Source of the DNA: an uncultured Acidobacteriota bacterium
Lineage (GTDB): Bacteria; Acidobacteriota; UBA6911
Direction: 5' to 3'
Assembly (NCBI GenBank): GCA_963809485.1
Contig: CAWEJX010000001.1
Span: 384,001 to 448,000, forward strand
Length of the DNA stretch: 64,000 nucleotides
The notes under the pieces are model-generated. The model worked only from the letters and a program-made list of their open reading frames with translations. It did no database searches and was not told the DNA's origin. Below are positions 2,312-46,333 of this stretch, in pieces. Both the position numbers and the translations under genes were made by a program. Each line of letters opens with the position of its first letter. Position 1 is the stretch's first letter.

Positions 2312-2400
2312 TCAGCTGATCTCCTGGAATGCATTTTTAGTGAAATCTGTGGTTGCTTTTTTATTCCAAAATATCCACCATTCCTGCTCAGGAGAAATGT

Positions 2401-4279: not shown

Positions 4280-4354
<75 letters not shown>

Positions 4355-4836: not shown

Positions 4837-7275
4837 CTACTCCATCGTCCTCGGCGGGATGGCCGACAAAACCGAAAGGTTGTGCGTGCCGAACAATGAA
4901 AAGGAAGCAACCGGCAAGTCAGACGTCAGCCGCACATACCCGGAAGTCTGGTCTTTCCAGTTCAGCGAACCAAAGTATTGCGGCAGGAGCCGGGCCCTCT
5001 TGTTGCCGGCCGGAATGTACCGGAGCGTCTCCTCGACCATTTTCCCGTCGGCATCAAGAAGCTCCAGCGTTACCTTCGCCGCGCTGCTGTTTGGATTAAG
5101 GATCGCGATGCCGGTGAAAAAGAGGTCGTTGGATGCGACATGACTGAAAAGCATTGAAGTCTGCAACTCGGAGATCAGCGCCAGGGCGGAAGCAAAGGTC
5201 TGGCGATTTATGTCGCCGAAAACGGTGCTTCCGGCAAGCCTTATGCCGTCGCTGACCATTTCGACATACCCTGAAGTCATCTTTTCCAGATCAAGGCTCG
5301 CAAAGAACGATGGATCGTCGATTAAAAGCTTCCCATTGGCCGGGATGACGAGAGTCCGCGTCGATCCGATCTGCTTGCCGTCTTCGGCAAAGAATCTGAA
5401 CTGAACGGTTCCTTTTCTGGAATCCAGGTTGACCACCGAAAGGCTGGTCCTATATTGGCCGCCAAGCACATATTGGGGCGAGTAGAGTGTTGTGTTGACT
5501 CCGGCGGCATTCTGCCCTGCCAGCATGGAAATATCACCCTTTGCCTGCTGCAGAACCTGGAAGGACTGAACGCCCTGATCCGCACTGACGCGGACATAGT
5601 CGGTCGCCTTTGCTTCAAGACCGGCAAACAGGTCGTTGAACAGGTCCGCCGTCAACGCGCCGTTCTTTGCAATCACTCGTGATTCGGACCTGCGAACCGC
5701 TCCGTCGGCGCCCATCAGCTTCAAGGTGACGCTGACGTCTTCCACGTTTTTATTGGCTATATTGAGTCGGCTATGACCGTTCGCCTGGATCTCGGTGAAA
5801 ATAAGATCCGTCAGCGTGTCGTCCTCGATATTGGCGCCATCCATGTAGTTCAGGTCACTGTCGAAAATCATGAATAGGCCATCGATGCCGGACGTGTCCG
5901 TATCGAGGCGTATCCAGCCGTCCGAGTTCGTCACGGCGAGGCCGTCCCCGAATATTGTCGAATCGTGGATCGGCAGCTGGGCGCCCGGCTCGAGCTCGTA
6001 GGTTCGTGGATTGTAGATTTGCCATCCATGAGTGTAACACCCGTCGCTCTCAATGGCGGTAAAAGCGAGACTGGCTCGTTCCGAGTCCAGATTGGCGAGT
6101 GCCATGCCCATTATGCCTTCCGCATGGCGCGCGGATGCCATTGCCGATTCCTGAGCTTCCCCAGCTAAAGCAAAGCGCGGCAGGGCGAACGTAAACGATC
6201 CCTTCTCTGTCGTGCTGAAATTATATTCGGGAGATGCAGCCAGGTCTCCCTCGGAATCCATGGACTTCACTCGGAATCGATAAAGCGTATGCTTCTGCAG
6301 GCCTTTCAGTGCAATGGTGTGCCGTGTAACCATGTCGTCAAGAGCAGCCCCGCGGGCATCCGATCCTTCAATCCAATACTCAACCTCTGAATTCGCAGCC
6401 CTGTCTGTAGTCCAGGATATCGTTGCACTTCTGCTGGTAACATTGGAGACGGCCACATCGCTGATCTCCAGGCTGGAATTCTTTCCCTTCGTGGTAAAGG
6501 TGTAATCGCCGGAGGTAGCCAGGTTGCCGGCAGAATCTCTGGATTTGACCCTATAGTGGTACGGAGTGTCTTCCATCAATCCGCTGAGTGCCTGGGTATG
6601 AAACTTATCCAGGTTTGTGTCAATCTTTGTGCTTTTCCCGTAGCTGGTGGAGGCGCCGTACTCAATCTGAGCAGTCGATGCTTCATCCGTCATCCATGTG
6701 ATGATTACGCCGGTGCTGGTAGGATCGGAGCTAAGCACGGAGGATATTTGCGGCGGGAACGTGTCTCCCGCGGCCAGCACAGTGATATTTCCCGATGTCA
6801 TCGAGACCTGGACAGAGTTTGCGGCAGGATCCGATGCAACAACTCCCCCTGGTTTAAGGGATAATGACCCGGTATCTGCAGCTGCGGATACATTCATCTG
6901 GATATGAGCAATTGGCCCGGAACTCAGAGCATTCTGGTTGAAACCAAAGATAATAAGGCGGACGCCGCCGGAAATTGCATTGGCGTAAGCGAGTTTACCT
7001 GCCGACGAAGAGGCTGCACCTGTTGAGACGGAAACAAATGAAAGCGAAGGGGAAAATATCAGGTCAAATTGCAGCGTACAGACAGATGCCGAACCCGGAT
7101 TGAACTGCACGGGTATGATTACCGAAGATCCAGGCGATCCCGAAGCCGATCCTGCCGCCAGGATGGGTGATTGTGCCATTGCGTTGGCGCCCACGAGCGT
7201 CCCGAGCAGCATAAAGCAGAATGCAAAACGTATAAACTGACACGGGACGTTTTTTTGAGTCCGCCGGGGTATCAT
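4837..7275 (-). CDS. secreted cohesin + 2x FN3-like + 4x Ig-like scaffold protein
   Basis: Signal peptide; cohesin-like aa ~37-167 (VIIPV..LQFDLIF..VRLIIFG..GPIAHIQM..GNITV); two ITW.TD....VEY...Y.YRVKS.D..G modules; four C-terminal modules with N..V.L...DG pattern. Confidence 0.75.
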   Translation of the reverse strand: MIPRRTQKNVPCQFIRFAFCFMLLGTLVGANAMAQSPILAAGSASGSPGSSVIIPVQFNPGSASVCTLQFDLIFSPSLSFVSVSTGAASSSAGKLAYANAISGGVRLIIFGFNQNALSSGPIAHIQMNVSAAADTGSLSLKPGGVVASDPAANSVQVSMTSGNITVLAAGDTFPPQISSVLSSDPTSTGVIITWMTDEASTAQIEYGASTSYGKSTKIDTNLDKFHTQALSGLMEDTPYHYRVKSRDSAGNLATSGDYTFTTKGKNSSLEISDVAVSNVTSRSATISWTTDRAANSEVEYWIEGSDARGAALDDMVTRHTIALKGLQKHTLYRFRVKSMDSEGDLAASPEYNFSTTEKGSFTFALPRFALAGEAQESAMASARHAEGIMGMALANLDSERASLAFTAIESDGCYTHGWQIYNPRTYELEPGAQLPIHDSTIFGDGLAVTNSDGWIRLDTDTSGIDGLFMIFDSDLNYMDGANIEDDTLTDLIFTEIQANGHSRLNIANKNVEDVSVTLKLMGADGAVRRSESRVIAKNGALTADLFNDLFAGLEAKATDYVRVSADQGVQSFQVLQQAKGDISMLAGQNAAGVNTTLYSPQYVLGGQYRTSLSVVNLDSRKGTVQFRFFAEDGKQIGSTRTLVIPANGKLLIDDPSFFASLDLEKMTSGYVEMVSDGIRLAGSTVFGDINRQTFASALALISELQTSMLFSHVASNDLFFTGIAILNPNSSAAKVTLELLDADGKMVEETLRYIPAGNKRARLLPQYFGSLNWKDQTSGYVRLTSDLPVASFSLFGTHNLSVLSAIPPRTME

Positions 7276-7350
7276 AGGAAACTCCTGAGTCCGGTATGGA
7301 TGGTGTTTGCACTAATTTCTTTGCGTCCAGTAGGCAACAAAGCGCCCTCG

Positions 7351-9486
7351 CTACTGAATGACCTGCGGTGGGACCGCGGACAGAATTGACAGGTTGTTTG
7401 TGCCGAAGAGCGAGAAGGAGGCGACCGGCTGATCCGATGTCAGCCGCACATAACCTGACGTCTGGCTGTTCTCCGAGAGATACCTGAACTGCTCAGACAA
7501 TAGCCGTGCCTTCTTTTGTCCCCGTGGGATCCGCTCTGTGACTGTCTCGATCCGCGTGCCGTCTTCTGCGAAAAGCTCCAGCGTGGCGTTCGCATCATTC
7601 GCCCCGGGATTCAGGATGGCGATGCCGGTAAAATAGAGGTCATCCGAGGCCACATGACTGAAGATCACCGATTTGTGAAGCTCGGAAATAAGCGCAAGCC
7701 CGGAAGAAAAGGAGCCGCCGTTCCTGTTACCAAACAGGGTACTTCCGGCCAGCCTGATGCCGTCGCTGATGATCTCGACATACCCTGCAACCATGTTTTC
7801 CGGATTGGCATCCAGAAAAAATTGCTGATCATCGATGTGCAGTTTCCCGCTGGCTGGGAGAATAAGGTACTGAGTTGCACCCAGCTGCCGTCCATCCTCG
7901 CCCATAAATCTGAGTTGCACAGTCCCTGCTCTGGAATCCAGGTTTATAAGAGAAAGGCTGGTACGGTACGCTCCGCCGATTACATACTGAGGTGAATAGA
8001 GGCTAGTCGATCCTGCACTAAGGTCCTGTCCTGCAAGGACGGTAATATCCCCTGCTTCCTGTTGCATTATCAGGAATGGATGCAATCCTTGGGTCGCCCT
8101 CACCCTGACATAATCGCCGGCACCAGGCTCGGTTCGGGAGAAAAGGTCGTCAAACAGATCTGCCGTCAAAGCTCCGTTGGCTGCAATCACGCTCGAAACA
8201 GAATCGCGGACAGATCCGTCGTCCTTTATCAGGCTCAGCATTGCAAAGGCTTCCGAAGGACTATTATTCGCGATGCTGACTCTGTTATGTCCTTCCTTCT
8301 GGATCTCGACAAAAGCAAAATCCGTCATCCGGCCGCCCGAAAAGTTGGCTCCGTCCATGAAGCCGAGATCGCTGTCGAACACGAGGAAAAAACCATAAAT
8401 ATCCGACCTTGCACTCGCCAGCTTGATCCAGCCCCCGTAATCTGCAGGGAGATAACCCTTTCCAAAGACCTCCCGGTCCAATACCGCCAGTTGTGATCCC
8501 GGACTCAGTCCCTGGACTCTGGGATTCGTCACACCCTGTCCTTCAGTCAGATCTCCGGTGCCTTCAAGCGATGTGAATGTGACCGTAGCCGGCTCGACAG
8601 CCAGGTTGGCAAGAGCCATACCGGTCATGACTTCATCTTTCGAAGCTTCCTGGAAACCTCCGAAAGTCAACCTCGGCAAAACGAGTTCAGATAGTCCATT
8701 CTCAGAAGTATTGAAACTGAATCCGCTGGCGACCGCCTGGTTGCCGTCCGAATCGGAGGATTTCACGCGGAAGTAATAGGTGGTTCGCGTTTTCAGTCGG
8801 TTGAGTTCCAAGGCGTGATCCGTCTCAAGCCTGCTGAGGATCGCCCTCCGGGAAGCAGATTCAGCAGTCCAGTACTCGACTTCCGAATTGGAAAGTATGT
8901 TGGTTTTCCAGGATATTTTGGCGCTTGTGCCGGTAACGCCGGAAACGCTTACCGTGCTGATAAAGGGTGGAAAAGCACCAGTGCGAGAAAAAACCATTAC
9001 ATTGCCCGGGATCCCGGAAATGTTGACTGCATTCGCCAAGGTATCGGAGGCAACGACTCCGGCGATGACAACAGGAAGCAAACCGGCCGGAGCATTTGTG
9101 GAGATATTCAGCTGTACCTCGGCGATTGTTCCTGCGCCGATGGCGCTATCGTTCGATCCAAAAACCAGAATTCGGGCTCTGCCTGAAAATGAATTGGCCT
9201 TCACCGACTTGCCTGCCGATCTGGCCGCGGTTCCCGTCGAAGCTGAGACACATGAAAGCGCCGGAGAAAACATAAGGTCAAACTGCATAGTGCTTATGGA
9301 GGCAGTGCCCGGATCGAATTCAACCGGAATGCTGACTATATTGCCTGTCAGGCTGGAAGCGTCGCCAACGGCAATAGATCCAGACTGCTCTGTGGCGCCG
9401 GCGGCACAAAACGTCCCTGGCAGAACGCATAAAGACACCAGTATCAGGCACGAAATTGCGCAGGCACGCCGGAAGGTCATGGACAA
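7351..9486 (-). CDS. secreted cohesin + FN3-like + 4x Ig-like scaffold protein (paralog)
   Basis: Same architecture with one FN3; clear paralogy (LYSPQYV.GG.YRTSLS, SHVAS.DL.FTGIAILNP, QTSGYVRLTSD.PVASFSLFGT). Confidence 0.75.
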   Translation of the reverse strand: MSMTFRRACAISCLILVSLCVLPGTFCAAGATEQSGSIAVGDASSLTGNIVSIPVEFDPGTASISTMQFDLMFSPALSCVSASTGTAARSAGKSVKANSFSGRARILVFGSNDSAIGAGTIAEVQLNISTNAPAGLLPVVIAGVVASDTLANAVNISGIPGNVMVFSRTGAFPPFISTVSVSGVTGTSAKISWKTNILSNSEVEYWTAESASRRAILSRLETDHALELNRLKTRTTYYFRVKSSDSDGNQAVASGFSFNTSENGLSELVLPRLTFGGFQEASKDEVMTGMALANLAVEPATVTFTSLEGTGDLTEGQGVTNPRVQGLSPGSQLAVLDREVFGKGYLPADYGGWIKLASARSDIYGFFLVFDSDLGFMDGANFSGGRMTDFAFVEIQKEGHNRVSIANNSPSEAFAMLSLIKDDGSVRDSVSSVIAANGALTADLFDDLFSRTEPGAGDYVRVRATQGLHPFLIMQQEAGDITVLAGQDLSAGSTSLYSPQYVIGGAYRTSLSLINLDSRAGTVQLRFMGEDGRQLGATQYLILPASGKLHIDDQQFFLDANPENMVAGYVEIISDGIRLAGSTLFGNRNGGSFSSGLALISELHKSVIFSHVASDDLYFTGIAILNPGANDANATLELFAEDGTRIETVTERIPRGQKKARLLSEQFRYLSENSQTSGYVRLTSDQPVASFSLFGTNNLSILSAVPPQVIQ

Positions 9487-9986
9487 CTCCTGACGCCAAG
9501 GACAACATTGTTCAATATCTGAAGATCCAGCACATCCACCCTGCTGTCCTGGTTCAGGTCGTAACTTGCGGAGGAGACGTTTATGCCAAGGATTACGTTT
9601 GCAAGTGCCTGCAAATCGAGGGCATCGATGGATGAATCGCCATTGATGTTGCAGGTAACCGAGGAGGTCCCGATAGTCCGGGAAATTTCATTGGAAAAAT
9701 CACTTTCATTCCCATCGACATCGATGGCTGTGACCGCGAAATAATAGGTCCCGCCGCTCAGTTTCGGGACCAGGTATGTAGTCTGGTTTCCGATCAGAAT
9801 CGGAGCGCCGTAAGTCCCAGAGGTCGTGCCAACATAAACCTTGTAGCCTGCGATATTTGTAGAAACACTCGGATCCCACACTAGTGGAACATCGGCAGCC
9901 CAGGCTCCTGCGCAACTGCATATCACGACCAAGATGGCCAATAAAGTTATCGGGAAGGAACGGAAGCATAATCGCCAGGTCGACAT
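9477..9986 (-). CDS. secreted FN3-dockerin protein
   Basis: Signal peptide (AWA-AD); FN3 (WDPS..IAGYKVY..YYFAVTA.D..GNES); duplicated dockerin Ca-loops NINGDSSIDALD and DLNQDSRVDVLD. Confidence 0.82.
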   Translation of the reverse strand: MSTWRLCFRSFPITLLAILVVICSCAGAWAADVPLVWDPSVSTNIAGYKVYVGTTSGTYGAPILIGNQTTYLVPKLSGGTYYFAVTAIDVDGNESDFSNEISRTIGTSSVTCNINGDSSIDALDLQALANVILGINVSSASYDLNQDSRVDVLDLQILNNVVLGVRSCP

Positions 9987-10214
9987 AGTCTTTCTCCGGA
10001 TCTATGCCCTGAAGTATCGGCAACTTGTCGAAAAATCCGGTGACCTCCGTCACCAAAGCTTCCATTTGGCGGGGAGCCTGCAAAATCTGTGTTATTGTTG
10101 GAATGCGAATTATGCTAGGATGCGGCCTGGAACATGAGGCAGGCACAAATAGCCTGACAGGGAAACGACAGGTGAGGGATTTCCCTGGCAGGAATATTTT
10201 GCCTGCCTTTATTT

Positions 10215-11594
10215 TTAGGATCCCTTTTTCACCAGGACGGTCTTGATTGTCTCGAGGATAATAAGGGCGTCCAGAACCCAAGACATATTCTTGATGTAGA
10301 AAAGATCGTACTGCAGTTTTTCCACGGTGTGATCCAGCGTATTGGCATACCCGTAGTTGATTTGGGCCCATCCGGTGATTCCAGGCTTTACGACGTGGCG
10401 CAGCGGGTAAAAGGGTATTGATTCAGCAAGCTGTTGAACAAAGTGAGGACGTTCCGGCCTGGGACCAACGAGGCTCATATCTCCGCGCAAAACGTTGAAG
10501 AACTGCGGCAGTTCATCCAACCGCGTCCGGCGCATTATTTTGCCAAGGCGTGTGACTCGGCTATCCCCTTCCGCGGACCATACGGGACCGGTCTCTGCTT
10601 CGGCGTCTTCACGCATGGAACGAAATTTCACCAGCCAGAAGGTTTTCCCGTCCTGTCCTACGCGCTCCTGTCTATAGAATATCGGTCCTTTGGAATCCAG
10701 CTTGATCAGAACCATCAGGAGAAGAATAACGGGAGATAAAACCAGTAAAAGGACCGAGGATATTGCAACCGATAACACCCGCTTTTGAAAAAAAATGCGC
10801 TTGGAAACCGCAAATCCCTGGTTGAAGACCATCCAGCTGGGCTTCAGGTTTTCGATCGGAATTTTTCCAGCCACGCGTTCATAGAAGGCGGTTGCATCTT
10901 CGATGGCAATACCCCGGGTTTTGTATTCGAGAAGTTCTTTTATGGGCAGCTTCCCTCTGCGATCCTGCAATCCGACGACAATTCGATCCACCTTGTGATT
11001 CTCAACCAGTTTCGGCAGCTCTTCGTAGACTCCGACCACGCTTGGATTCACAATGGATTGCCCGACAAGCTTCGGATTGTCACCCACAAAGCCGACAACC
11101 CTTATGCCCAACTCGGGGTGCCTCAAAATCTCTCTTACGGCCTCGCGGGCGAGAGTGCCGGTTCCGAGCACCAGCAGGTTGGTGTGTGGAGCGCGACGGT
11201 CCCAATAGACGCGCAGGACAGAATGCCAGATCACAAGGAAGGCGCAGCTAAGCACCAGGCTGATTCCGAAAACTCCGCGGCCGATCATAACGCTCGGCGC
11301 TATGAAATAGAGAACACATAAGACCACGGTTGCCATAAACAGCGCCTGACAGAGGCGGAGGATATATTCCTTTGAAGAACGCGTTCTGCGGGACCCGTAT
11401 ATGTCGTTCAGGTGGAGCGAAAGCTGGAAAATTGCGGCGACCAATATTGCTTTTAGCAGCATGTGGTCGCCATTGCTTGAAGCCAGGGGGGATTCGCTCA
11501 GGCGGAGAAGATAGGCAGCCAAGACGCACCCTACCAAAAGCAGGGTTTCGACGAAGACCGCGCCGAATTTCCGCAACGCAAGATACCGCCACAT
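10215..11594 (-). CDS. PEP-CTERM system-associated polyprenyl glycosylphosphotransferase (TIGR03013-like priming sugar transferase)
   Basis: KFRSM, RTRLDELPQFFNVLRGDMSLVGPRPERP, KPGITGWAQ, KLQYDLFYIKN. Confidence 0.93.
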   Translation of the reverse strand: MWRYLALRKFGAVFVETLLLVGCVLAAYLLRLSESPLASSNGDHMLLKAILVAAIFQLSLHLNDIYGSRRTRSSKEYILRLCQALFMATVVLCVLYFIAPSVMIGRGVFGISLVLSCAFLVIWHSVLRVYWDRRAPHTNLLVLGTGTLAREAVREILRHPELGIRVVGFVGDNPKLVGQSIVNPSVVGVYEELPKLVENHKVDRIVVGLQDRRGKLPIKELLEYKTRGIAIEDATAFYERVAGKIPIENLKPSWMVFNQGFAVSKRIFFQKRVLSVAISSVLLLVLSPVILLLMVLIKLDSKGPIFYRQERVGQDGKTFWLVKFRSMREDAEAETGPVWSAEGDSRVTRLGKIMRRTRLDELPQFFNVLRGDMSLVGPRPERPHFVQQLAESIPFYPLRHVVKPGITGWAQINYGYANTLDHTVEKLQYDLFYIKNMSWVLDALIILETIKTVLVKKGS

Positions 11595-12614: not shown

Positions 12615-15600
12615 TTACAGTTTGGCCAATGTCGAACGGGCTTCATCGGCTCCGGAGAAGTTCGGGCTCAGGCGCAAAGCTTCCGAAAGTGAAGCCCTGG
12701 CGTTCGCTTTGTCGCCAGCTTTGAAATAACTCATCCCGAGATGATAGTGGAACACAGGATTTTTCGAATCCAGACGGACGCTCTCTTTGAGAGTCTGAAT
12801 CGCAGACTGGAAGGATCCTTGACGGTAATAAACCCAGCCAAGCGTATCCGTAACACTTGCCGAACCAGGCAGCTTTCTTTTGGCAATTCTTGCCAGACTT
12901 AATGCTTCGTTCAGGTCGCCGCCTGTTTCGGCCAGCAGCCAGGACAGATTATTCGCGGCCACCGTGAACTGCGGATCAATTTTTAAAGCTTCCCTGTAGC
13001 TCTCTATCGCCTTGGTTTTGTTCTTCTGCAATTCATAAATCGCGCCGAGTAATGCCCAGCTTTGAGAGGATTCCGGGTTGAGTTTGATAGCGTTATCCAA
13101 TTCCCTGATGGCCTGGTCTGCGGAATTTTGCATCCCGTATAGTTGCCCAAGGAGCTGATAGGTGCTCAGGTTGCTGCTATCGAGAGACAGCGCCTTGCGA
13201 TAGGACTGTTCGGCATTTGTATAATCGCTTCGGCTGGCATAAATCCGTCCCTGAATCTCGTAAAGCTTTGCATTCTTAGGAGATTTCTCAATCTGCTGGT
13301 TGACAAGCTGGAGAGCTTTTTCGGGATTCTTTCGAGCCAGGGCAATCTCCGCAAGGGCTGTCACCGGTTCCGCGTCACCCGGATTTGCTTTGACTGCCTC
13401 GTTCAGCAATTCCTCGGCTTTGGCAGTATTTCCCAAGCCATAATAGGCAAGCCCCAGGCGGTTGAGTGCCAAGGAATCCCCGGGCTTGACTTTCAGATAC
13501 GCTTCATAAGCATCTACCGCTCCTCTGTAATTTCGCTGGGCGTCGTAGGCGGCTCCCAGGCTCAGGCGTGCATCGGAAGAATTCGGATTTACTCGAAGGG
13601 CTTGTTGTGCGAAGCGAATAGCAGAAGCATAGTCACCGCTGTCATACTTGAGCCGGCTCAGTGCAATGTGGGCGATAGCCATCCGTGGATCCAATTCCAC
13701 AGCCCTGTTCCACGCCTCTTCGACCTTTGCAGATTTCGGATCCTTAAGGTATAGGGCCTGACCCAAGACAAAGTGGGCGGAGGCCAACTTGGGATTGATG
13801 CCTATGGCGGCCTGCGCCTCCTCTATGGCAGCATCGGCGCTTCCCTTCCCACGAAGCAGATCGCTCTTGATGATGTGCGCTTCGGTGTCATTTGGAGTCC
13901 TTTTCAGGATTTCATCAATGACCTTTATTCCTTTATCCCAGGATTTCTGGCGGAGGTACTGGATTGCCAGTTGTTTGTTGTAGGAAACATTGCCAGGTTC
14001 CCTTTGTGCCAGGCTTTGCAGAAGATCGGTGCTCTTTTCAGGCTTTCCCGTCCGCGAATAAAAGCCTGCCAGCGCGGAAGCAACCGCCGGATTCTTCGGA
14101 TCGGCCTGAACCGCTTTTTTATAGAGGTCCTCTGCGCGGACCAGGTCTTTCCGGGATTCAGAAATTTCAGCCTGCAGGCGCAGAATGGGCGCCTGGGCCG
14201 CACCGTTTGTACGTGCCATTTGCTGATTCAACCGTTGAACAGCCTTGTCCGGCTTACCCTGCCGCATATAAAGAGCCGTGATTCCCGAGAGGGCATCAAC
14301 AGAAGACGTATCAGTTTTAAGGGCAGCTTCAAATTGCGCTTCCGCCCGAGGCAAATCGCCGGCCGTCAAATATGCGGCCCCCAACCGCTCTTGTCCACGT
14401 GCATCCGCAGGATTACGCTGAACGTATGCTTCCAATTCCGGGATTGCAGCTCCTGTATTGCCCTTTTGCATATGCGCCGCGCCCAGGATCAAATGCGCTT
14501 CGGTACGGTTCGGGGCAATCGTCAATGCCTGCTGGGCATAACGAATCGCGTTGTCCGCATCTCCTGCCTCGAGCTTCAGCTGTGCCAGAGCCAACACAGG
14601 CTGTACGAAGCGGCCTGGATTCCGGGCGGCCTCGGTCCACTCCTTTTCCGCTGACTGCCGATCCCCGGACTGGAGATACGCCATTCCCAGAAAGTGCCGT
14701 GCCTGGACCGAATCGGGATCTGCATCTGCAGCGGACTTGAATTGCTTCAGCGCATCAGCATATTTGCTCTGCGCATACAGGATTCTGCCTTTAAGCACCA
14801 GCGCGTCCATGTTCTTGGGATCACTTTTGAGAATTACGTCGGCTATTTCTTCAGCTTTGCCGTAAGCCTTCTGATTAATATAGGAATCGGCTAGCCTTTC
14901 TTTCAGTTTTTCATCGTCAGGATTCTCTTTCACAAGCCCTTCAAGCACCTCGGCGCTCTTGTCGGCCTTTCCGATCAAACTGTAAAAATTGCTCAGCGCC
15001 TGGCGTGCGGCCGAGTTTTTCGGGTCGACGGAAACTGCCTTCATATAGGCTTGTTCAGCCTTAACGGGATCGTTCATCCTCAAATAGGCTTGCCCGAGGA
15101 CCTCGTATAGCTGAACCTGTTTCGGATTCTGCTCTATGGCCCGGTTGATGCGATCCAAAGCCTTTTGCGGATTCTTCTGAGACATATAGAGGCCTGCGAG
15201 CGAAGCAAGGGCATCGAAGTATTGCGGATTGGCTTTTAGAGCAGTCTCGAACTGGGCTTCAGCCTGCCTGGCAGCGCCCTGGGTCATGTAAACCATGCCA
15301 AGCCTGTGATGGCCTGCCGCGCTCTCAGGATTGCGCTGCACGAACTCCTCGAGCTCTCTTGCTGCTCCCTGGTAATCCTTGTTGTTCGCCAGGGCGATTC
15401 CCAGAACCAGCCTCGCCTCGCGGGCATTGGCATCGATTGCCAACGCCTGTTTGGCGAGTGATGCGGCGGTCTGTGAATCGCCGGCATTCAACCTCAGCTG
15501 AGCGAGTGCGATGTAAGCCTGTGTCAGGGTGGCGTCATAGCGTAAAGCCTGAATCAGCTCCTGCTCCGCCTTTTGCTGGTCCTCATTCAATAGCAGTGCG

Positions 15601-16727
15601 AAGCCCAAGAAATAGTGGGACTGGCCTCTCGTGGGCAGGGCTTTGACGGCCGCTTCCAGCTTTGTCACGGCGTCCGGAATCCTTTTCTGTGCCAGCGCAA
15701 TCCTGCCCTGGATCAGAAAAGCATCACCGTCCTTGGGATTGATCTTAAGGATCTTTTCGGCCAGCTGGCTCGCTTTGTCCAGTTCATTGCGGGAAATGTA
15801 GATTCCTGCCAAACGCTTGAGGGGCAACGGATCCGAGGCATTGTCGGAAGCAAGCTTCCTATAGGCTTCCATGGCGCGTTCTGTCTGTCCGGTCCCGGCC
15901 AAAAAATCCGCAAGCACGATTTTGTGGATGATTTCATTCGGATAGATATCACACAGCTTGGCGTAGACAGCTTCAGCCTCGGAAAGTCTCTTGTTTTGCA
16001 TCAAAAAATAGCCAAGCGCATTGTACGCGCTGCGGGATTTTGGATCCGCTGCAATGGCGCTTTGGTAGAGCTGTTCCGCTTCCTGGGGACGCTGCGAGAG
16101 GGAGTAGTAATTGGAAAGGGCAATCCTCGGCTCGACGGAATCGGGGGCGACCTCAATAGCATGCCTGTAAGCTTCCTCTGCCAGCTCCGGCTGACGCACG
16201 GTTTCCCCAGGATCGGACAGCTTGAGAAAGGCAGGCATAAAACGCGGCTCAGGCTGAAGACCTTGCCGCATCTCCCCTATGGATTCGTCGAGCTGGATCA
16301 TGCGCGCGTAAGTGTTGCCGAGGAGTATTTGCGCATGGACATTGCTGGAATCGCGCCTCAAAATCAATTCAGCCTTGCCCCGGGCATCGTCGAACTTCCT
16401 TTCCATGAGCAGGATGTTGGCAAGCCTTAGCTGGGCGGACAGATTGTTGGGATCGAGCTGAATGGTTTTCATCAGGGTCCCGTACGCATCGCTGAATTGC
16501 CCCACACAAAGTTGCCCGAGCGAAAGCTTATAGTGCGCTTCCGGGAGATTTGGAGCAGCCTTTACGGCGTTCCGAAATTCAATCATCGCCTCTTTGTACT
16601 TTCCCTGAGACAAGTACTTTTCCCCGTTGCTTATGTACTTTTGGGGATTCTTGGAACAACCGGCAATCGATAGCATAAAGACAGCCAGGACAAGCCAGCC
16701 GGCACGGAATCGAAATGAGCTAGGCAT
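12615..16727 (-). CDS. prsT: TPR lipoprotein of the PEP-CTERM system (PrsT-like), 1370 aa
   Basis: Lipobox IAGC, continuous TPRs, C-terminal AANNLSWLL..DTLGWVYY..YHLGM; downstream of exosortase/epsI. Confidence 0.88.
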   Translation of the reverse strand: MPSSFRFRAGWLVLAVFMLSIAGCSKNPQKYISNGEKYLSQGKYKEAMIEFRNAVKAAPNLPEAHYKLSLGQLCVGQFSDAYGTLMKTIQLDPNNLSAQLRLANILLMERKFDDARGKAELILRRDSSNVHAQILLGNTYARMIQLDESIGEMRQGLQPEPRFMPAFLKLSDPGETVRQPELAEEAYRHAIEVAPDSVEPRIALSNYYSLSQRPQEAEQLYQSAIAADPKSRSAYNALGYFLMQNKRLSEAEAVYAKLCDIYPNEIIHKIVLADFLAGTGQTERAMEAYRKLASDNASDPLPLKRLAGIYISRNELDKASQLAEKILKINPKDGDAFLIQGRIALAQKRIPDAVTKLEAAVKALPTRGQSHYFLGFALLLNEDQQKAEQELIQALRYDATLTQAYIALAQLRLNAGDSQTAASLAKQALAIDANAREARLVLGIALANNKDYQGAARELEEFVQRNPESAAGHHRLGMVYMTQGAARQAEAQFETALKANPQYFDALASLAGLYMSQKNPQKALDRINRAIEQNPKQVQLYEVLGQAYLRMNDPVKAEQAYMKAVSVDPKNSAARQALSNFYSLIGKADKSAEVLEGLVKENPDDEKLKERLADSYINQKAYGKAEEIADVILKSDPKNMDALVLKGRILYAQSKYADALKQFKSAADADPDSVQARHFLGMAYLQSGDRQSAEKEWTEAARNPGRFVQPVLALAQLKLEAGDADNAIRYAQQALTIAPNRTEAHLILGAAHMQKGNTGAAIPELEAYVQRNPADARGQERLGAAYLTAGDLPRAEAQFEAALKTDTSSVDALSGITALYMRQGKPDKAVQRLNQQMARTNGAAQAPILRLQAEISESRKDLVRAEDLYKKAVQADPKNPAVASALAGFYSRTGKPEKSTDLLQSLAQREPGNVSYNKQLAIQYLRQKSWDKGIKVIDEILKRTPNDTEAHIIKSDLLRGKGSADAAIEEAQAAIGINPKLASAHFVLGQALYLKDPKSAKVEEAWNRAVELDPRMAIAHIALSRLKYDSGDYASAIRFAQQALRVNPNSSDARLSLGAAYDAQRNYRGAVDAYEAYLKVKPGDSLALNRLGLAYYGLGNTAKAEELLNEAVKANPGDAEPVTALAEIALARKNPEKALQLVNQQIEKSPKNAKLYEIQGRIYASRSDYTNAEQSYRKALSLDSSNLSTYQLLGQLYGMQNSADQAIRELDNAIKLNPESSQSWALLGAIYELQKNKTKAIESYREALKIDPQFTVAANNLSWLLAETGGDLNEALSLARIAKRKLPGSASVTDTLGWVYYRQGSFQSAIQTLKESVRLDSKNPVFHYHLGMSYFKAGDKANARASLSEALRLSPNFSGADEARSTLAKL

Positions 16728-16852
16728 GAATTCCTCCGTAAAGAAGCGACCGAAATCTTTGCAAATTAATCTCTTACCGGATCCTTTTCAATACATCCCC
16801 TGGATAATTCATCAGGAGTAACCCACGCAACGGTCATGGAATACAAGCTTCG

Positions 16853-17515
16853 TTAATCCGGGATGTATCGGAATAGCATCGGGTATATCCGTTTCGCGAA
16901 ATCCACGGAGAGTCCTTCCGCCTTTTCCTCAGCAGCCGCCTCCAGTGACTCCGCCGGGCACATGATACGTACAAGCGCCGCATCCGTGCGCCCCAAACGC
17001 ATTTTATCCACCATTCCGTAGATCAAGCCCCAGTATTCGCTGGCGATGACTCGTCCGCAACCCTGATACCAGTAGAGCACAACTTGTTTGTCCGCCCCTT
17101 TAAGAATTACAATCCGGTTAACGCGTATGGATTTCCTGCCGTTGCCATCAGGGGGTGCGGTTACCGGTATATCAAGATAATCCTTCTCGACAGGGATCCA
17201 CCCGGAACCCGGAAGGCAGTTCAGGGGAGAATGAAAACCTCCCTTGAGGTGGTAGCCGATGTAAAGCCCCACGCTCTGACCGTCAGAATTGGTGTATTGG
17301 CGGGTTACATAGTCGCTGACCTGAAGCATATTGCGGGCATTATCACTGAGGTCCGCCAGAGGCTGTCCTTTCCACGAGCCAAGCTGCATCGGCAGGGTGG
17401 ATAGTGAATCGCGCTGCGGAATGGAAGCCGGTTCGAAGGTGCGTGCCATGATTCCCGCACCTGCGAGAAGGCAGATGCAAAAGACCAAAATCCGGATTGC
17501 CATGGATATCTTCAT
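16853..17515 (-). CDS. epsI: EpsI family protein
   Basis: LP..LG.W.G, LYIGY, HSPLNCLPGSGW, VLYWYQ..GR, RTDAALVRI. Confidence 0.92.
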   Translation of the reverse strand: MKISMAIRILVFCICLLAGAGIMARTFEPASIPQRDSLSTLPMQLGSWKGQPLADLSDNARNMLQVSDYVTRQYTNSDGQSVGLYIGYHLKGGFHSPLNCLPGSGWIPVEKDYLDIPVTAPPDGNGRKSIRVNRIVILKGADKQVVLYWYQGCGRVIASEYWGLIYGMVDKMRLGRTDAALVRIMCPAESLEAAAEEKAEGLSVDFAKRIYPMLFRYIPD

Positions 17516-17559
17516 CGCTCAAAGCTCCTCACGAAACCACCTGACCCCATAAAAGGTTG

Positions 17560-18408
17560 TTAAGCTGCAGCCGGTTCCTCAGCGGGATTATTCTTCGCAG
17601 GCGCCAGTCGAAGCAAGATTCGGTGCACAAGGAATAGCATGCAAAAGGCCACCACAAAGACCAGCCATCCTGAGAATGTATGGAAGAACCCCTCGGCCGC
17701 TTCCGGGCCGTAGTAATGCGCAGCCAGGCCAGTTCCGGAGACGCGGATCGCATTCGCCGCGATGGCAATCGGTACTGTGGACAGGGCGAGGATAACACGA
17801 AGCCAGGTTCTAGCTTCGATAAAATACCCATACACAATTCCCAGAGTCAGCAGCGATATCAACGACCGGATTCCGCTGCATGCCTCGGCAACTTCCAGAC
17901 TGGTATTGGCTAATTGGATCACGTTGCCTTCGCGCAGCACGGGGACCTGGCAGGCTGCCAGGGTCCATTCGCCGAAACGGGAAGACAGCAGCTGCAAGGG
18001 GAATGTCACCGGGTTGAAGATCACTGAAGGAATCGGAATCATGAGCAGCAGGAAAGCTATCGGGAAAGCCATCACTTTCAGGCGCGCCCAACCGCAAAGA
18101 AAGGCGATGCCACCGATCAGGCAGAAGAGCATCGCTATCCGGTTGACGAATGGATGCATATTCAGCACGGTTGCTAGGATTGCGGGCAGAAAAATGATCA
18201 TTCCTGTCCAGGAAGGTTTCCGGGGCGCTTGAGCAAACTTGCCTCGCCTCTCCCATGCAAAATAGAGGGCTAATGGCACGATCAGGAAGCCATGAGAGTA
18301 ATTGTCATCCCGCATCCAGTCACTGACCATTTCGACAATGACCTGTCGATAAAGCAAGGCAAAACATGCAAGAACAAGCAGCAGCGCTGCGGCGGTTTTT
18401 TTATTCAT
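17560..18408 (-). CDS. epsH: exosortase (EpsH/XrtA-type)
   Basis: YSHGFLIVP; catalytic Cys (VAEACSGIRSL), Arg (ANAIRV) and His (FFHTFSGW); multi-TM. Confidence 0.93.
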   Translation of the reverse strand: MNKKTAAALLLVLACFALLYRQVIVEMVSDWMRDDNYSHGFLIVPLALYFAWERRGKFAQAPRKPSWTGMIIFLPAILATVLNMHPFVNRIAMLFCLIGGIAFLCGWARLKVMAFPIAFLLLMIPIPSVIFNPVTFPLQLLSSRFGEWTLAACQVPVLREGNVIQLANTSLEVAEACSGIRSLISLLTLGIVYGYFIEARTWLRVILALSTVPIAIAANAIRVSGTGLAAHYYGPEAAEGFFHTFSGWLVFVVAFCMLFLVHRILLRLAPAKNNPAEEPAAA

Positions 18409-18436
18409 TTTAATCCCAAATATTTAGCCTGAATCT

Positions 18437-19840
18437 TTACCGCAGTCCGTGACGCTCCATGAGCTCGTAAAGCGTCGGCCTGCTTACGCCAAGAGCTCGC
18501 GCGCTTTTCGAGATGTTTCCACCGTTCTCCAAAAGGGCTCTCTCAATAATTTCCCGTTCCAGCTCTTCGCGCGCCTCCTTCAGCTTGCCTTGAACGTTCT
18601 CCGGTTCCTCCGCCGGGGCCGCCAGATCCAGCTCCTCGGGTGAAATCGTTCTGCCTTCCGAAAGCACCAGCGCCCTCTGAACCCGATTCTGAAGCTCCCG
18701 AACGTTCCCCGGCCACGAATGCTTGCGCATGGCATCGAGCGCCGGTTTCGAGAATCGAGTGGGCGGCTTTTTCATTTCACGGCAATAGGATTTGACAAGG
18801 TGATGAGCCAGGTCGACGACGTCTTCGCCGCGATCCCGCAATGGGGGCAAGAGCACCCGAACCACTGCCAGGCGAAAATACAAATCCTCGCGGAATCGAC
18901 CGGCTTTCACAGCCGCCTCGAGATCCTGGTTTGTAGCGGCAATCACACGCGCATCAATGCGAATTGGATCCCTGCCTCCCACGCGCTCCACGATTTTCTC
19001 CTGCAGGAATCGCAGGATCTTGACCTGCAACTCGGGCACCAAATCGCCGATTTCGTCGAGGAAAAGAGTTCCGCCGTTTGCATACTCAAATTTTCCGCGG
19101 CGCTGGGACGTCGCTCCGCTGAAAGACCCCTTTTCGTGGCCAAAGAGCTCACTTTCGAGAAGGGTCTCGGGAATTGCAGCGCAATTGATGGCGATGAACG
19201 GTCCTTTCTTACGGGCACCCCGGTTGTGGATTGCATTGGCGATGAGCTCTTTGCCCGTGCCGCTTTCGCCAAGTAAAAGCACCGGGACATCGGTCTCGGC
19301 GACTTTCCGGACCGTCTCAAAAACAATCTGCATGGGCCGGCTGGACCCGATGATTTCCTCCAGTGAAACCCGCTGCGCCAGGCGTCGTTCCTCAATGCTC
19401 TCGTTCTCAAGAGCCAGCCGTTTGAAAACGCGGCCTAAAACAACTTTGAGCTCATCCAAATCCACGGGCTTGGGGAAAATGTCGTGAGCTCCTTTCTCGA
19501 TAGCCCGGAAAGCGTTTGCGCGTTCAGAGTTGCCTGAGACAATTATGACCTTTACCAGGGGGTTTAATGCGATCAGTTCATCCAGCGCAGCAAGGCCTTC
19601 GACGGCTTCGCGGGGATGGGGGGGCAGACCCAGGTCGAGCAGAACAACTGCAATTTTCTCCCTTCGAAAGGTATCAAGCGCACCGATCCTATCCGATGCG
19701 GCAAATACGGCATAGTTGTCCGATAGCGCCCAGCGCACCTGGCGAAGGATCTGCTCATCGTCATCCACTACCAGCAGTTTGGGTAGCGATGCCGTTTCCT
19801 TCTGGTCCTTCCGAACTGTCATTTTCCCGCTCTTTTCCAT
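18437..19840 (-). CDS. prsR: sigma-54 dependent response regulator, PEP-CTERM-box type
   Basis: REC (LLDLGLPP), Walker A GESGTGKE, ESELFGHEKGSFSGA, WPGNVREL, HTH LGVSRPTLY. Confidence 0.92.
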   Translation of the reverse strand: MEKSGKMTVRKDQKETASLPKLLVVDDDEQILRQVRWALSDNYAVFAASDRIGALDTFRREKIAVVLLDLGLPPHPREAVEGLAALDELIALNPLVKVIIVSGNSERANAFRAIEKGAHDIFPKPVDLDELKVVLGRVFKRLALENESIEERRLAQRVSLEEIIGSSRPMQIVFETVRKVAETDVPVLLLGESGTGKELIANAIHNRGARKKGPFIAINCAAIPETLLESELFGHEKGSFSGATSQRRGKFEYANGGTLFLDEIGDLVPELQVKILRFLQEKIVERVGGRDPIRIDARVIAATNQDLEAAVKAGRFREDLYFRLAVVRVLLPPLRDRGEDVVDLAHHLVKSYCREMKKPPTRFSKPALDAMRKHSWPGNVRELQNRVQRALVLSEGRTISPEELDLAAPAEEPENVQGKLKEAREELEREIIERALLENGGNISKSARALGVSRPTLYELMERHGLR

Positions 19841-19861
19841 CCTTTGCCAGTCCCTGCTTCG

Positions 19862-21958
19862 TTATCCACCGGAAACATTTGAAACCTCAGCCAGCGGAAA
19901 CCAAAGGTGCACCGTCGTCCCGCTACCCTCCTGGCTTTCGACTTTAATGGTGCCGTTGTGAGCCTCAACGATCTTTTTCGACTGATAGAGACCTATGCCC
20001 AGGCCTTCGCTCTTTGTGGTGTGGAATGGGACAAAAAGCTCTTTTTCAATAAATTCAATGCCCATTCCGGGGCCATCGTCTTCCACTGCCAGCTCTACTT
20101 GATCTGCTTTGCTTCGAGTCCTCAGCGTAATGGTCCCACCGGAAGGCATAGCCTCTCTGGCATTGAGCAGCAGGTTCCGTAGGACGCGCTCAATCTCCTC
20201 GGCATCCACGAAAACAGGCGGAACCTCAACAAGGTCAAGGATCAGCCGGTGCGAATGATCACCAGAGAAATTATCGGCAACAGTACGCACAATATGATTT
20301 AAATCGCAGATCTTTTTGTTGACCGGAACCGCCCCTGAAAATGCCCTCAGGCTGTTGCAGAGCTTCTTCATTTTTTCGGCGGTTTCAAAAACGGACTGAA
20401 ACGCATCCCGCTGGAAGTCAGGATTATCCCGGTACTGGGAGGCGTTTCTTGCTATGAGTGATAGCGTTGAAGCGAAGTTTTTCAGATCGTGGAGCAGGAA
20501 AGTGGAAAAGGTCCGAAAAACTTCGCTTTCCTTGGCTTCCACAAGGGTAGCCAGAAGATCCGTTTTGTGAAATTCCCCGGCGGCATATCGACCGAGGACG
20601 CCGAGGAACTCGAGAGCATCCCAATCGTAAGGCTGCCCGCTCCGATCGGGCCCCACAGTCAGGAGACCGACGACCCGGCCCCCGGAGTGCAGGGGAACAA
20701 CAACAGATGTGTTGGTTTTGGCGATGAGCTCCGGCATCAATTTCTCCAAAGCAGCGTTGTCGAACTCTTTAACGGGAGTCGGCTTGTCGACGTCAAACAG
20801 CTTCTCGACAATCCCGAATAGCTCAGTCCCTGAAGCGTACCCGATATTTCCAAGCATCCCGACCAATTTGAGACGGACCGGATTCTGCATTCTCAGCCAG
20901 ACACTGACGTCGATGGCTCCAACTGCTTTCTGCGCAATATCTGCGAGGGCCTCGGCAGCAGCTTCGGTTGCATCCAGGGCTCGGATCCGGTCGCTGGCTT
21001 CAATCCAGTATTGCCGGTAATCGTACTTTCCGGCAAGGAGGTTTCTCCGTATCCAGTGTTTCGCGCGATGACGGAAATCGGTCCAGAGGAGAATCACAGC
21101 CAGGGATAGCAGAAGAAGCAGGAAAAGCATCGCTTCGAGGGATACTTCCTGACTGCCCCACTGTCCCGCCCACCGCGCGGCGAGACTCGATATAATCAGG
21201 TAGATCCCGGCCCCGGTCAGCGTAATTGTGCTGTAGATAAATCCCTGAGAAACACTTACCTTCCAGCGGCCTGAACTCCTTCGCCAGGATACCAGGATCA
21301 GGAGGCAGGAAATCAGAAACAGGATTGGAAATATCTGAAGAGACGCAAAAGATATAAGTCCAACCCGGGGAGAAAAGAGAAGGACTTTGGAACCGATGTA
21401 AAGAATACACCCGAACATTCCCGCGAGACCAAGCAGGAGGAATTTGATCTCCCAACGGACACCTTCCGGGGCGCTTCTGAGCGTCTGTTCCAGGTTGGCG
21501 AGCACAACAACGGAAACCAGCACGAGATATAGTGCGCAGAAATAGGCCCCGGGACCCAGGGCGAAATCCCCGGGCGGAATTGCCATTGTCAGGTCAGGGG
21601 GCATGGAATACCAAATCCATACAAAGCCCACCGCGGCAGCAACCATAGTCAGAATGGTGGAGACAGATCTTTTGGGCCACAAGCGAGCACGGTCCTCGCG
21701 ACCCACGGTAAAGCTGACCAGATAGCCCAGAGGGGCGGCAACAACAATCAGGCCAAAGGAAAACCTCAACAAAGACTCAGTGGGCCAGGCACTCTGCAGC
21801 GAACGCAACACCATGGCGCCTGAAGATAAAGACAGCGGCAAAAGGAGAAGCGCAAGAAACCATGATGCCCTCCCAATTCGTCGAAAAAGGAACACCAGGA
21901 TCGCGGTGGTTATCCCGACCGCAAAGGAGAGCAATTGCACAAAACCCAAAGGTGGCAT
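19862..21958 (-). CDS. prsK: PEP-CTERM system histidine kinase
   Basis: N-terminal TMs with ANLEQT.R...RWEIKF, KYDYR..W, GAF, H-box HDLKN, G-boxes GLGIGLYQ. Confidence 0.92.
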   Translation of the reverse strand: MPPLGFVQLLSFAVGITTAILVFLFRRIGRASWFLALLLLPLSLSSGAMVLRSLQSAWPTESLLRFSFGLIVVAAPLGYLVSFTVGREDRARLWPKRSVSTILTMVAAAVGFVWIWYSMPPDLTMAIPPGDFALGPGAYFCALYLVLVSVVVLANLEQTLRSAPEGVRWEIKFLLLGLAGMFGCILYIGSKVLLFSPRVGLISFASLQIFPILFLISCLLILVSWRRSSGRWKVSVSQGFIYSTITLTGAGIYLIISSLAARWAGQWGSQEVSLEAMLFLLLLLSLAVILLWTDFRHRAKHWIRRNLLAGKYDYRQYWIEASDRIRALDATEAAAEALADIAQKAVGAIDVSVWLRMQNPVRLKLVGMLGNIGYASGTELFGIVEKLFDVDKPTPVKEFDNAALEKLMPELIAKTNTSVVVPLHSGGRVVGLLTVGPDRSGQPYDWDALEFLGVLGRYAAGEFHKTDLLATLVEAKESEVFRTFSTFLLHDLKNFASTLSLIARNASQYRDNPDFQRDAFQSVFETAEKMKKLCNSLRAFSGAVPVNKKICDLNHIVRTVADNFSGDHSHRLILDLVEVPPVFVDAEEIERVLRNLLLNAREAMPSGGTITLRTRSKADQVELAVEDDGPGMGIEFIEKELFVPFHTTKSEGLGIGLYQSKKIVEAHNGTIKVESQEGSGTTVHLWFPLAEVSNVSGG

Positions 21959-30597: not shown

Positions 30598-30598
30598 C

Positions 30599-34354: not shown

Positions 34355-34644
34355 CGCCCGCTTGATGCGCCACAGGCGAAGCAGTCCACGATGAGAGCAT
34401 TTCAGTCAAAGCTGGCGGAATTATGCCTATCGAAAAATGGAAACCCGAAAATGCTTCGTGGCGACAATAAGGACCGCCCATCCCAATTTTGTGCCCAGCG
34501 TCACCAATCATAGGAGTCTTTTTAATTAAAATCCCTTTTATCGCCGATAGAATCAAAGGGCGCGAAGATTCGACATATTCCGGCGAAGGGAATGAATCTG
34601 GATTAGGGCCATTGCGCATCTTCTGGGTCGGAGGAAAACATACA

Positions 34645-46253: not shown

Positions 46254-46268
46254 TGGCATGGATATTGC
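46254..46268 (+). promoter_or_regulatory. sigma-54 (-24/-12) promoter
   Basis: TGGCATG-GATA-TTGC matches TGGCACG-N4-TTGC, 65 bp before the PEP-CTERM gene ATG. Confidence 0.8.
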
Positions 46269-46333
46269 GTTATTTTGGCCAGAAGGCGGCAAAAATGAGA
46301 AATCTTAGATCTTGCAATAAAGGAGTGAATATC

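Follow-up and report, generated by a model that had tools for sequence, protein, structure and literature searches.

The window analysed here, a 64-kb stretch of DNA from an uncultured Acidobacteriota bacterium, harbours three adjacent minus-strand genes whose products, named P0001, P0002 and P0003, carry cohesin and dockerin modules. Such pairs are understood almost wholly from the cellulosomes of Firmicutes. P0003 (9477..9986; 169 amino acids, aa) consists of a signal peptide, a distinctive FN3 head at aa 31-107 (9666..9896), termed FN3doc here, and a C-terminal dockerin at aa 108-169 (9480..9665; Pfam and homologue alignment). P0002 (7351..9480; 709 aa) combines a cohesin (8983..9387), one FN3 domain and a C-terminal module termed CTERM (7354..8700; phmmer 974/495 bits). 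P0001 (4837..7275; 812 aa; open reading frame (ORF) list and Pfam) has the same order of modules with one FN3 more, its cohesin lying at 6763..7176 and its CTERM module at 4840..6204 (aa 358-812). An earlier, sequence-only reading of this DNA had described three co-oriented genes for secreted proteins, two of them paralogous, directly downstream of a priming sugar transferase on the same strand and lacking any recognisable catalytic domain. This description is accurate. The ORFs lie on the minus strand as given above, with signal peptides judged by eye; P0001 and P0002 are 53% identical over 542 aa (43% over the N-terminal 258 aa); the transferase lies 228 nucleotides (nt) upstream of P0003, across the intergenic region 9987..10214 (minus strand); and no catalytic family was found in P0001, P0002 or P0003 by Pfam and NCBIfam scans. 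Matches to Pur_ac_phosph_N in the trio concern the FN3-like, non-catalytic N-domain of that family and are thus not a sign of a phosphatase. The 10-nt overlap once claimed between the dockerin gene and the first cohesin gene holds if P0002 starts at the TTG at 9486 (7351-9486, 711 aa), but the ATG at 9480, preceded by AGGAG and a 6-nt spacer, is the likelier start and gives an overlap of 4 nt, ATGA. The same 4-nt ATGA overlap of dockerin and cohesin genes is repeated in two related loci, L001 and L002 (in locus coordinates), and speaks for translational coupling. The ATG of P0001 is likewise preceded by AGGAG and a 6-nt spacer.

The cohesin family PF00963 matched P0001 with 38.8 bits (aa 42-166) and P0002 with 32.2 bits (aa 38-149) at a cut-off of 24.1, and Dockerin_1 (PF00404) matched P0003 with 33.2 bits (aa 114-162) at a cut-off of 22.9, so that both families expected from the earlier reading are present above cut-off. 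Hidden Markov models (HMMs) built from homologues scored 181 bits for each cohesin and 134 bits for FN3doc. A profile of the N-terminal region of the cohesin family matches the solved cohesins 2vn5_A (1.5e-8) and 1g1k_A (6e-8), as well as 6kg8, 6kgc, 4uyp and the NagJ construct 2w1n (E 1.5e-8 to 7e-4). Solved dockerins are matched in the same way by a profile of 62 P0003 homologues, with 1daq at 9e-7 and 2vn5_B at 7e-6, followed by 2mte, 4fl4, 5nrk, 1ohz_B and the NagH dockerin 2jnk. The fn3 family is found in the two large proteins with 47.3 and 25.0 bits (cut-off 25); in P0003 it stays below cut-off at 21.1 bits, and it is the AlphaFold2 (AF2) model together with Foldseek (TMt 0.5-0.7) that assigns this domain to FN3. 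The identity of the 169-aa protein as an FN3-dockerin is upheld in this way, and by sequence the modules of the trio are genuine cohesins and a genuine dockerin. No other cohesin or dockerin was found in the window when the custom HMMs were run over its ORFs. Each large protein has a single cohesin, and neither a carbohydrate-binding module (CBM) nor a glycoside hydrolase nor any other enzyme was seen in the trio, which is therefore not a cellulosome.

The dockerin of P0003 comprises two repeats of a 12-residue calcium loop and a helix, NINGDSSIDALD and DLNQDSRVDVLD, between Cys112 and Cys168. Both loops have D or N at positions 1, 3, 5, 9 and 12, which we take to be the calcium-ligand positions of dockerin F-hand repeats, and these are conserved across the 62 homologues; C112, N115, D117, D124, D143, D154 and C168 do not vary in any of the 62 aligned sequences. 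The two 22-residue repeats are identical at 13 of 22 residues, and in cellulosomal dockerins such internal symmetry permits dual binding modes. Homologues of P0003 with a length of about 165-170 aa are numerous (275 found). The AF2 model of P0003 (pLDDT 84.8) has a helix at residues 13-23, corresponding to the signal helix, a beta-sandwich at 31-105, and helices at 122-132 and 152-162 within the dockerin (pLDDT 91-96). Cys112 immediately precedes the first calcium loop and Cys168 is the last residue but one of the protein. The clasps that join the N- and C-terminal ends of dockerins have been described as aromatic, hydrophobic or electrostatic, and the term disulfide is absent from the accessible part of that source (PMC3821032). 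An invariant cysteine pair at the site where known dockerins hold a non-covalent clasp suggests that Cys112 and Cys168 probably form a disulfide clasp.

The conserved core of P0001 and P0002 is not the cohesin part but the C-terminal module of about 450 aa, which is built of four beta-sandwich repeats. A search with P0001 recovered 78 proteins, of which 61 have the last ~450 aa in common (local phmmer) while their N-termini vary; a full cohesin was present in 38 sequences, the two of the window included. The few source names among these relatives were 'hypothetical' or 'FN3 domain-containing', from metagenome-assembled genomes of Acidobacteria. The AF2 model of the P0001 module is all-beta (pLDDT 92.6, pTM 0.90), and its four repeats of about 110 aa are marked by invariant Asn residues at module positions 38, 151, 259 and 370. 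The Pfam family DUF5719 (PF18986) matches P0001 at 26.2 bits, exactly its cut-off of 26.2, does not match P0002 and scores 34-47 bits in relatives; the match spans only part of the four-repeat unit, and the module is called DUF5719-like here. The nearest named clusters in the ESM Atlas are also DUF5719 (0.94). A sequence search of the PDB gave no relative of the CTERM part, and no catalytic fold was among its Foldseek matches.

Among 1.84 billion representative proteins the module has 2992 matches at E<=1e-3, 1558 at E<=1e-10 and 343 at E<=1e-30. The best 150 matches reach the module end in 145 cases, and 134 of these 145 end within 15 aa of the C-terminus; the region ahead of the module ranges from 1 to 1974 aa. 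A Pfam scan of 29 of these 150 proteins, picked for length and position, revealed diverse passengers: an S8 subtilase with BACON, PPC and TIG domains, TIG arrays, FN3 arrays, one cohesin, LRR with FN3 and InlB B-repeats, BACON and PPC with a C-type lectin, and DUF7948 with a beta-propeller. In several of the 29 the module itself exceeds the DUF5719 cut-off. A constant C-terminal unit beneath such highly varied passengers looks like an anchoring or base module.

Species representatives in GTDB were scanned with the CTERM alignment, a pattern-based search that favours close relatives, which yielded 74 loci from 39 assemblies, often several per genome and all from Acidobacteriota. The HMMs for the cohesin, the dockerin and FN3doc were run over all ORFs of these loci. 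A gene joining cohesin and CTERM occurs in nine of the 74 (L001, L002, L006, L008, L010, L012, L015, L024 and L029), each in a different assembly. A dockerin gene lies beside it in all nine, as compared with none of the other 65 loci (Fisher 9e-12, a value to be read with the relatedness of the 74 loci in mind, as they do not represent 74 independent trials). Eight of the nine dockerin genes encode stand-alone FN3doc-dockerin proteins of about 170-220 aa as ORFs, and the ninth, in L008, an FN3doc-dockerin-CTERM fusion. Two cohesins are available per dockerin in the window and in L001, L006, L012 and L015.

Two of these loci deviate in their organization. In L008 (2337-4472 and 5005-7470, plus strand) a protein with FN3doc, a dockerin with extra cysteines, FN3 and CTERM is encoded beside a cohesin-bearing paralogue, which could allow one body to be coupled to another. 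In L024 (9116-10702, 10753-11397 and 11394-11969, plus strand) the cohesin-bearing gene is apparently split in two ORFs, which appears to reflect a frameshift, decay to a pseudogene or faulty assembly, and the dockerin gene is located downstream of the cohesin gene, not upstream.

The relation between the two partners is most clearly indicated by CTERM proteins that have no cohesin. Nine of these open with FN3doc directly after the signal peptide (L003, L004, L007, L010b, L011, L018, L029b, L031 and L041, where L010b and L029b denote a second gene in L010 and L029). Their FN3doc domains score 69-107 bits with the HMM and share 41-59% identity with the FN3 of P0003, a closeness on a par with that of true P0003 orthologues from other genomes, whose FN3 shares 52-57%. 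The internal FN3 domains of P0001 and P0002 showed no significant similarity to FN3doc of P0003. The presence of FN3doc in cis at the same N-terminal position suggests that the cohesin-dockerin pair rejoins non-covalently a head and a body that are otherwise one polypeptide. A quick maximum-likelihood tree was made of 56 CTERM modules, with ORFs excluded if their module match fell below 330 aa. All cohesin-headed (11), FN3doc-headed (7) and FN3doc-dockerin (1) rows grouped in a single clade of 25 (SH-aLRT 96), interleaved with each other. Several of the remaining rows in this clade have lost their 5' part to the end of a contig. On well-supported branches the cohesin label must change three times or more. 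From this interleaving and from the cis-fused paralogues, the lineage appears to have switched repeatedly between a head fused to its body and a dockerin-tagged head with a cohesin-tagged body, and this switching is the best argument at hand that head and body are the very parts which the pair brings together.

The trio is the last part of a larger island devoted to exopolysaccharide (EPS). The priming sugar transferase (10215..11594, minus strand; 459 aa) is of the type found in XrtA/PEP-CTERM systems (TIGR03013, 482.5 bits, cut-off 393.35). Upstream of it on the same strand, at 12615..21958, lies a prsK-prsR-xrtA-epsI-prsT block in which every member exceeds its NCBIfam cut-off: PrsK 326.2 bits (300), PrsR 575.2 (502.6), XrtA 214.7 (208), EpsI 104.3 (42.8) and PrsT 610.2 (312.2). 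With XrtA, EpsI, PrsK, PrsR, PrsT and TIGR03013 all present, the locus is an XrtA/PEP-CTERM EPS locus. On the downstream side of the trio a tRNA-Gly(GCC) gene (4280-4354, plus strand) lies 480 nt past the stop codon of P0001 and is followed by cysS (2353-3792); both are on the other strand, which makes the trio the last unit of the island, and the tRNA gene may mark the island edge. This tRNA was the only match in an Rfam scan of the window.

Xrt, Prs or TIGR03013 neighbours are found in five of the nine cohesin-dockerin loci (L001, L002, L006, L010 and L015), compared with three of the 65 other CTERM loci. A TIGR03013 transferase scoring above cut-off is the immediate upstream neighbour in L001 and L002 and is divergent in L006. 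Upstream in L010 are PrsR, XrtA (209.2 bits, cut-off 208), EpsI, PrsT, a GT2 transferase and a CPBP-type protease, and the CPBP gene recurs in L015, where the other neighbours are PrsT, Wzz, a tyrosine kinase and a deacetylase. The three linked loci without cohesin are L018, where a fused paralogue occupies the slot directly after TIGR03013, L003, with PrsK, PrsR and exosortases, and L023, whose transferase is about 6 kb away. Linkage to EPS genes is thus specific to the cohesin-dockerin subfamily and recurs with varying gene order; it is real but not universal. The expectation of the earlier reading that homologous triplets co-occur with xrt/prsKRT loci is in this sense confirmed for five of nine loci and not for all. 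The gene for this CPBP/Rce1-like intramembrane protease (PF02517; 6852-7511 in L010 and 7625-8329 in L015, plus strand in both) immediately precedes the FN3-dockerin gene and was not found in the window.

We lean slightly towards the reading that the trio encodes a secreted, non-enzymatic two-part assembly, in which a dockerin-tagged FN3 head docks onto P0001 and P0002, and which is tied by descent to the XrtA EPS locus in part of the lineage. P0001 and P0002 would be single-cohesin receptors in which an N-terminal socket is set off by one FN3 spacer or two from a compact base of four sandwiches, and P0003 a minimal dockerin-tagged ligand made of a distinctive FN3 head and a C-terminal type-I-like dockerin. 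After Sec export the dockerin of P0003 would plug into either cohesin in a calcium-dependent manner and so rebuild non-covalently the head, stalk and base that the cohesin-less paralogues have in a single polypeptide. The cohesins may additionally accept other dockerin-tagged proteins encoded elsewhere. In part of the lineage the assembly is inherited together with the XrtA/Prs exopolysaccharide locus, and it would most likely belong to the cell surface or the EPS matrix, with a structural or adhesive role. A scaffold or adaptor complex, as the earlier reading had proposed, still appears the best account of the trio, given the presence of a dockerin gene at every cohesin locus and at none of the others, the ATGA overlap and the paralogues with FN3doc in cis.

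A number of observations weigh against this reading. The co-occurrence of cohesin and dockerin is not phylogenetically independent: the supported branches provide three usable pairs, for which a sign test gives p = 0.5 and has no power. Foldseek with the whole P0003 model returned FN3 entries and no dockerin among the top 50, so that the dockerin fold is based on sequence profiles and two predicted helices. For CTERM the Foldseek matches were loose arrays of MG/Ig domains with TMq 0.09-0.16 and no globally similar solved structure; the role of this module as anchor or base is one that we infer from its position and its variable passengers, and no mention of DUF5719 was found in the literature. 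An SLH domain, a PEP-CTERM signal or a lipobox that could serve as anchor was not seen in the trio (Pfam and regular expressions, the lipobox by eye). As to the EPS connection, L008 (a contig of 7.5 kb), L024 and L029 have no Xrt or EPS neighbours, and at L012 a TPR gene in common with L015 lies upstream where the contig ends, with no EPS link visible. No credible sigma-54 promoter was found upstream of P0003, the sole nearby match (10079-10094) being without the GG, and a sigma-54-like TGGCAT-N5-TTGC occurs at 46254-46269 (plus strand), 66 nt upstream of the PEP-CTERM gene 46335-47041. The spacer between transferase and P0003 also contains a palindrome, GGTGAC-N4-GTCACC, followed by a T-run (10036-10057, minus strand).

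The weak CTERM matches to complement C3/C5, A2ML1, PrgB and pilins, at TMq of only 0.09-0.16, led us to reject any transfer of function from these proteins. An intrinsic terminator in the transferase-P0003 spacer was likewise considered and rejected: hairpin and T-run are present but the folding energy is ordinary (z = -0.75), and the element decides nothing on co-transcription. Its stem is kept in the spacer of L001 with a different loop, and it may be bound by a protein or act as a weak attenuator.

The same modules can be read as a system for display of enzymes, in which the cohesins would mainly recruit dockerin-tagged proteins from elsewhere in the genome, in a non-cellulolytic but cellulosome-like manner; we regard this as possible although we would not expect it. 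The cargo might then include metalloproteases, BACON/FN3 proteins and dehydrogenases, with P0003 as one ligand, a cap or a competitor. A dockerin-only search for longer proteins, with words from the 65-aa region, listed 14 matches, and all 14 carry the same dockerin subtype 0-2 residues from the C-terminus, with the cysteine pair in 12. Five are Reprolysin-type Zn metalloproteases of ~450 aa from environmental Acidobacteriota (P0209 and P0211-P0214), six have the order FN3doc-(FN3/BACON)-dockerin, a series of which P0003 is the shortest, P0203 is a multi-FN3 carrier without an FN3doc match, and P0215 and P0216 are GSDH-like carriers from which the cysteine pair is absent. The occurrence of this dockerin on metalloproteases in other Acidobacteriota makes it possible that cargo is encoded elsewhere in the genome, and the surplus of cohesins over dockerins in the window and four other loci is in line with this. 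The label 'cellulase-free' given by the earlier reading is valid for the locus, while the rest of the genome may encode cargo. However, no carrier was traced to the organism of the window or to a genome with cohesin-CTERM genes, every dockerin in the 74 loci adjoins a cohesin, the fused paralogues single out the FN3doc head as partner, and 14 matches obtained from a 65-aa region sample the range of cargo poorly.

A broader version of the preferred head-and-body assembly can be put forward tentatively, as a rather unlikely generalization. Acidobacteriota would have a hitherto unrecognised, non-cellulolytic plug-in surface display with the DUF5719-like module as a phylum-typical anchor or base of thousands of exported proteins, some of them with a cohesin as socket for swappable heads. 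The copy in the window would be tied to the XrtA-dependent EPS matrix, and the repeated change between covalent fusion and cohesin-dockerin split would show in nature how domains can be joined by a detachable connector. The swappable heads would in this case be FN3 heads, Zn metalloproteases and BACON- or lectin-type binders, attached to a matrix-bound stalk via the disulfide-clasped dockerin.

A second alternative concerns the neighbourhood rather than the binding partners. The EPS and exosortase genes could be incidental and the trio an independent surface or adhesin module at the island edge, which is conceivable but in our view doubtful. The trio is last in the island, next to the tRNA-Gly and cysS on the other strand. 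Regular expressions over all window ORFs and Pfam PF07589 detected no PEP-CTERM tail in its proteins, which end in PPRTME (P0001), PPQVIQ (P0002) and VRSCP (P0003), and P0001-P0003 are thus, as judged from their C-termini, not exosortase substrates. The missing sigma-54 site, the three or four of nine cohesin-dockerin loci without Xrt or EPS neighbours and the 62 of 65 cohesin-less CTERM loci that are unlinked point in the same direction. Against this, linkage recurs in five assemblies with differing gene order, the fused paralogue of L018 follows TIGR03013 just as the trio does, L003 has PrsK, PrsR and exosortases for neighbours, and the transferase-P0003 spacer is as conserved as coding sequence, being 73% identical to that of L001 where the flanking genes are 69-77% identical. 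The claim that the complex works with the EPS and exosortase machinery is thus retained in part, for the neighbourhood in five of nine loci, and is opposed by the lack of PEP-CTERM and sigma-54 signals in the trio and by the three unlinked loci.

That the modules are cohesin-like and dockerin-like in fold only and do not pair, but bind for example calcium or carbohydrate and are neighbours through shared regulation or export, would agree with a 2009 survey by Peer and co-workers, which reportedly contained many non-cellulosomal modules of both kinds with no demonstrated partner, but is improbable in view of the strict co-occurrence (9 of 9 versus 0 of 65), the start-stop overlap of the two genes, the cis-fused FN3doc forms, the calcium-loop residues intact in both repeats and conserved in 62 homologues, and nearest solved relatives that include 2vn5_A and 2vn5_B, two chains of one complex.

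Comparison with known systems places the head-and-body assembly closest to an anchoring scaffoldin with its ligand, and not to a cellulosome, which by analogy is the best reading of how it would act. Clostridial type I pairs (C. cellulolyticum 2VN5 and C. thermocellum 1OHZ) belong to the same Pfam families and are matched by profiles on both sides, and the P0003 dockerin resembles theirs in its duplicated 22-residue calcium-loop and helix unit and in its position at the extreme C-terminus of the carrier. In contrast to clostridial cellulosomes, the trio locus is without a carbohydrate-active enzyme (CAZyme), a CBM or a multi-cohesin scaffoldin and resides in a diderm phylum; the carrier of the dockerin is a 169-aa FN3 protein, and an invariant cysteine pair occupies the site of the non-covalent clasp. 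SdbA of C. thermocellum is a single-cohesin anchoring scaffoldin with an SLH anchor. P0001 and P0002 are similar to it in having one cohesin on a non-catalytic protein and a C-terminal module common to many exported proteins, but they end in the DUF5719-like four-sandwich unit instead of an SLH or sortase signal, and here the anchoring role is a proposed one. The use of cohesin and dockerin for assembly outside cellulose degradation would have parallels in the toxin-complex modules NagH/NagJ of C. perfringens, whose NagJ cohesin-FN3 construct 2w1n and NagH dockerin 2jnk/2ozn are among the structure matches, and in the pair of Archaeoglobus fulgidus, which is mentioned in the review literature. 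Those pairs connect glycoside hydrolases or proteins of unassigned role in Firmicutes and Archaea, whereas the trio is enzyme-free, appears to alternate in evolution with a covalent fusion and sits in an XrtA EPS locus. The gene neighbourhood is that of the XrtA/PEP-CTERM system (Haft et al. 2006, PMC1569441), including two PEP-CTERM proteins in the window, but the trio proteins differ from the substrates of that system in having no PEP-CTERM signal. PMC1569441, with which the PEP-CTERM literature began, does not mention cohesin, dockerin, fibronectin or Acidobacteria.

Nothing was found in the literature that connects PEP-CTERM systems with cohesin or dockerin modules, or that joins exosortase, PEP-CTERM, Acidobacteria and exopolysaccharide. 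Papers with cohesin, dockerin and Acidobacteria were, by title, metagenome or CAZyme surveys, and by title or opening of the abstract none of them was on such a system. Most likely, as far as the sequences indicate, the trio represents a non-cellulolytic use of the plug and socket of cellulosomes, with an FN3 head joined onto two stalk-like proteins, which has gone undescribed for Acidobacteriota. It is unusual in that it occurs in a soil-dominant and mostly uncultured phylum, that neither partner has an enzyme and that the dockerin clasp is apparently covalent. The pattern of split and fused forms makes a concrete prediction of binding partners, and the large uncharacterized C-terminal module, which counts about 3000 representative clusters, stands at the end of exported proteins of very different kinds. 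If CTERM is an anchor tied to an XrtA exopolysaccharide matrix, this would bear on the building of surfaces and aggregates in Acidobacteriota, and protein engineering in diderm bacteria would also gain a new, orthogonal pair of cohesin and dockerin.

Further features of the island concern its regulation and its EPS genes. A sigma-70-like TTGACG-17-TATAAT is located upstream of the transferase at 11804-11776. The scan for sigma-54 promoters had 41 matches compared with 36.3 expected. PEP-CTERM proteins were encoded by 46265-47041 and 49937-50611 only (plus strand, within the EPS cluster; PF07589 23.7 and 20.9 bits, cut-off 20.7). The first of these genes has its probable start at an ATG at 46335, with AAAGGAG before it and a clear signal peptide after it, and the sigma-54-like site at 46254-46269 would fit control by the sigma-54 activator PrsR. 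PrsT (12615-16727, minus strand) is an expanded TPR protein of 1370 aa, compared with the 899 positions of TIGR02917, which it matches in six stretches. In the gap between prsT and the transferase an ORF of 191 aa (11860-12435, plus strand) has a sub-threshold match to DUF218 (26.8 bits, cut-off 27.6), and its status as a gene is uncertain.

A large plus-strand EPS cluster begins at 22.4 kb and contains GT4 and GT2 transferases, FemAB-like acetyltransferases, a Wzy-like ligase, a flippase, export and chain-length proteins, a tyrosine kinase and an XrtA-type deacetylase (TIGR03006, 387.8 bits, cut-off 276.2). The 799-aa product of 34489-36888 (plus strand) in this cluster belongs to no NCBIfam family and has a C-terminal CarboxypepD_reg/Ig-like match only. 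The genes at 27062-28234, 28369-29514 and 30545-31735 (plus strand) are three paralogues of the Acetyltransf_6 family (FemAB-like GNAT), with a polysaccharide deacetylase gene interleaved among them.

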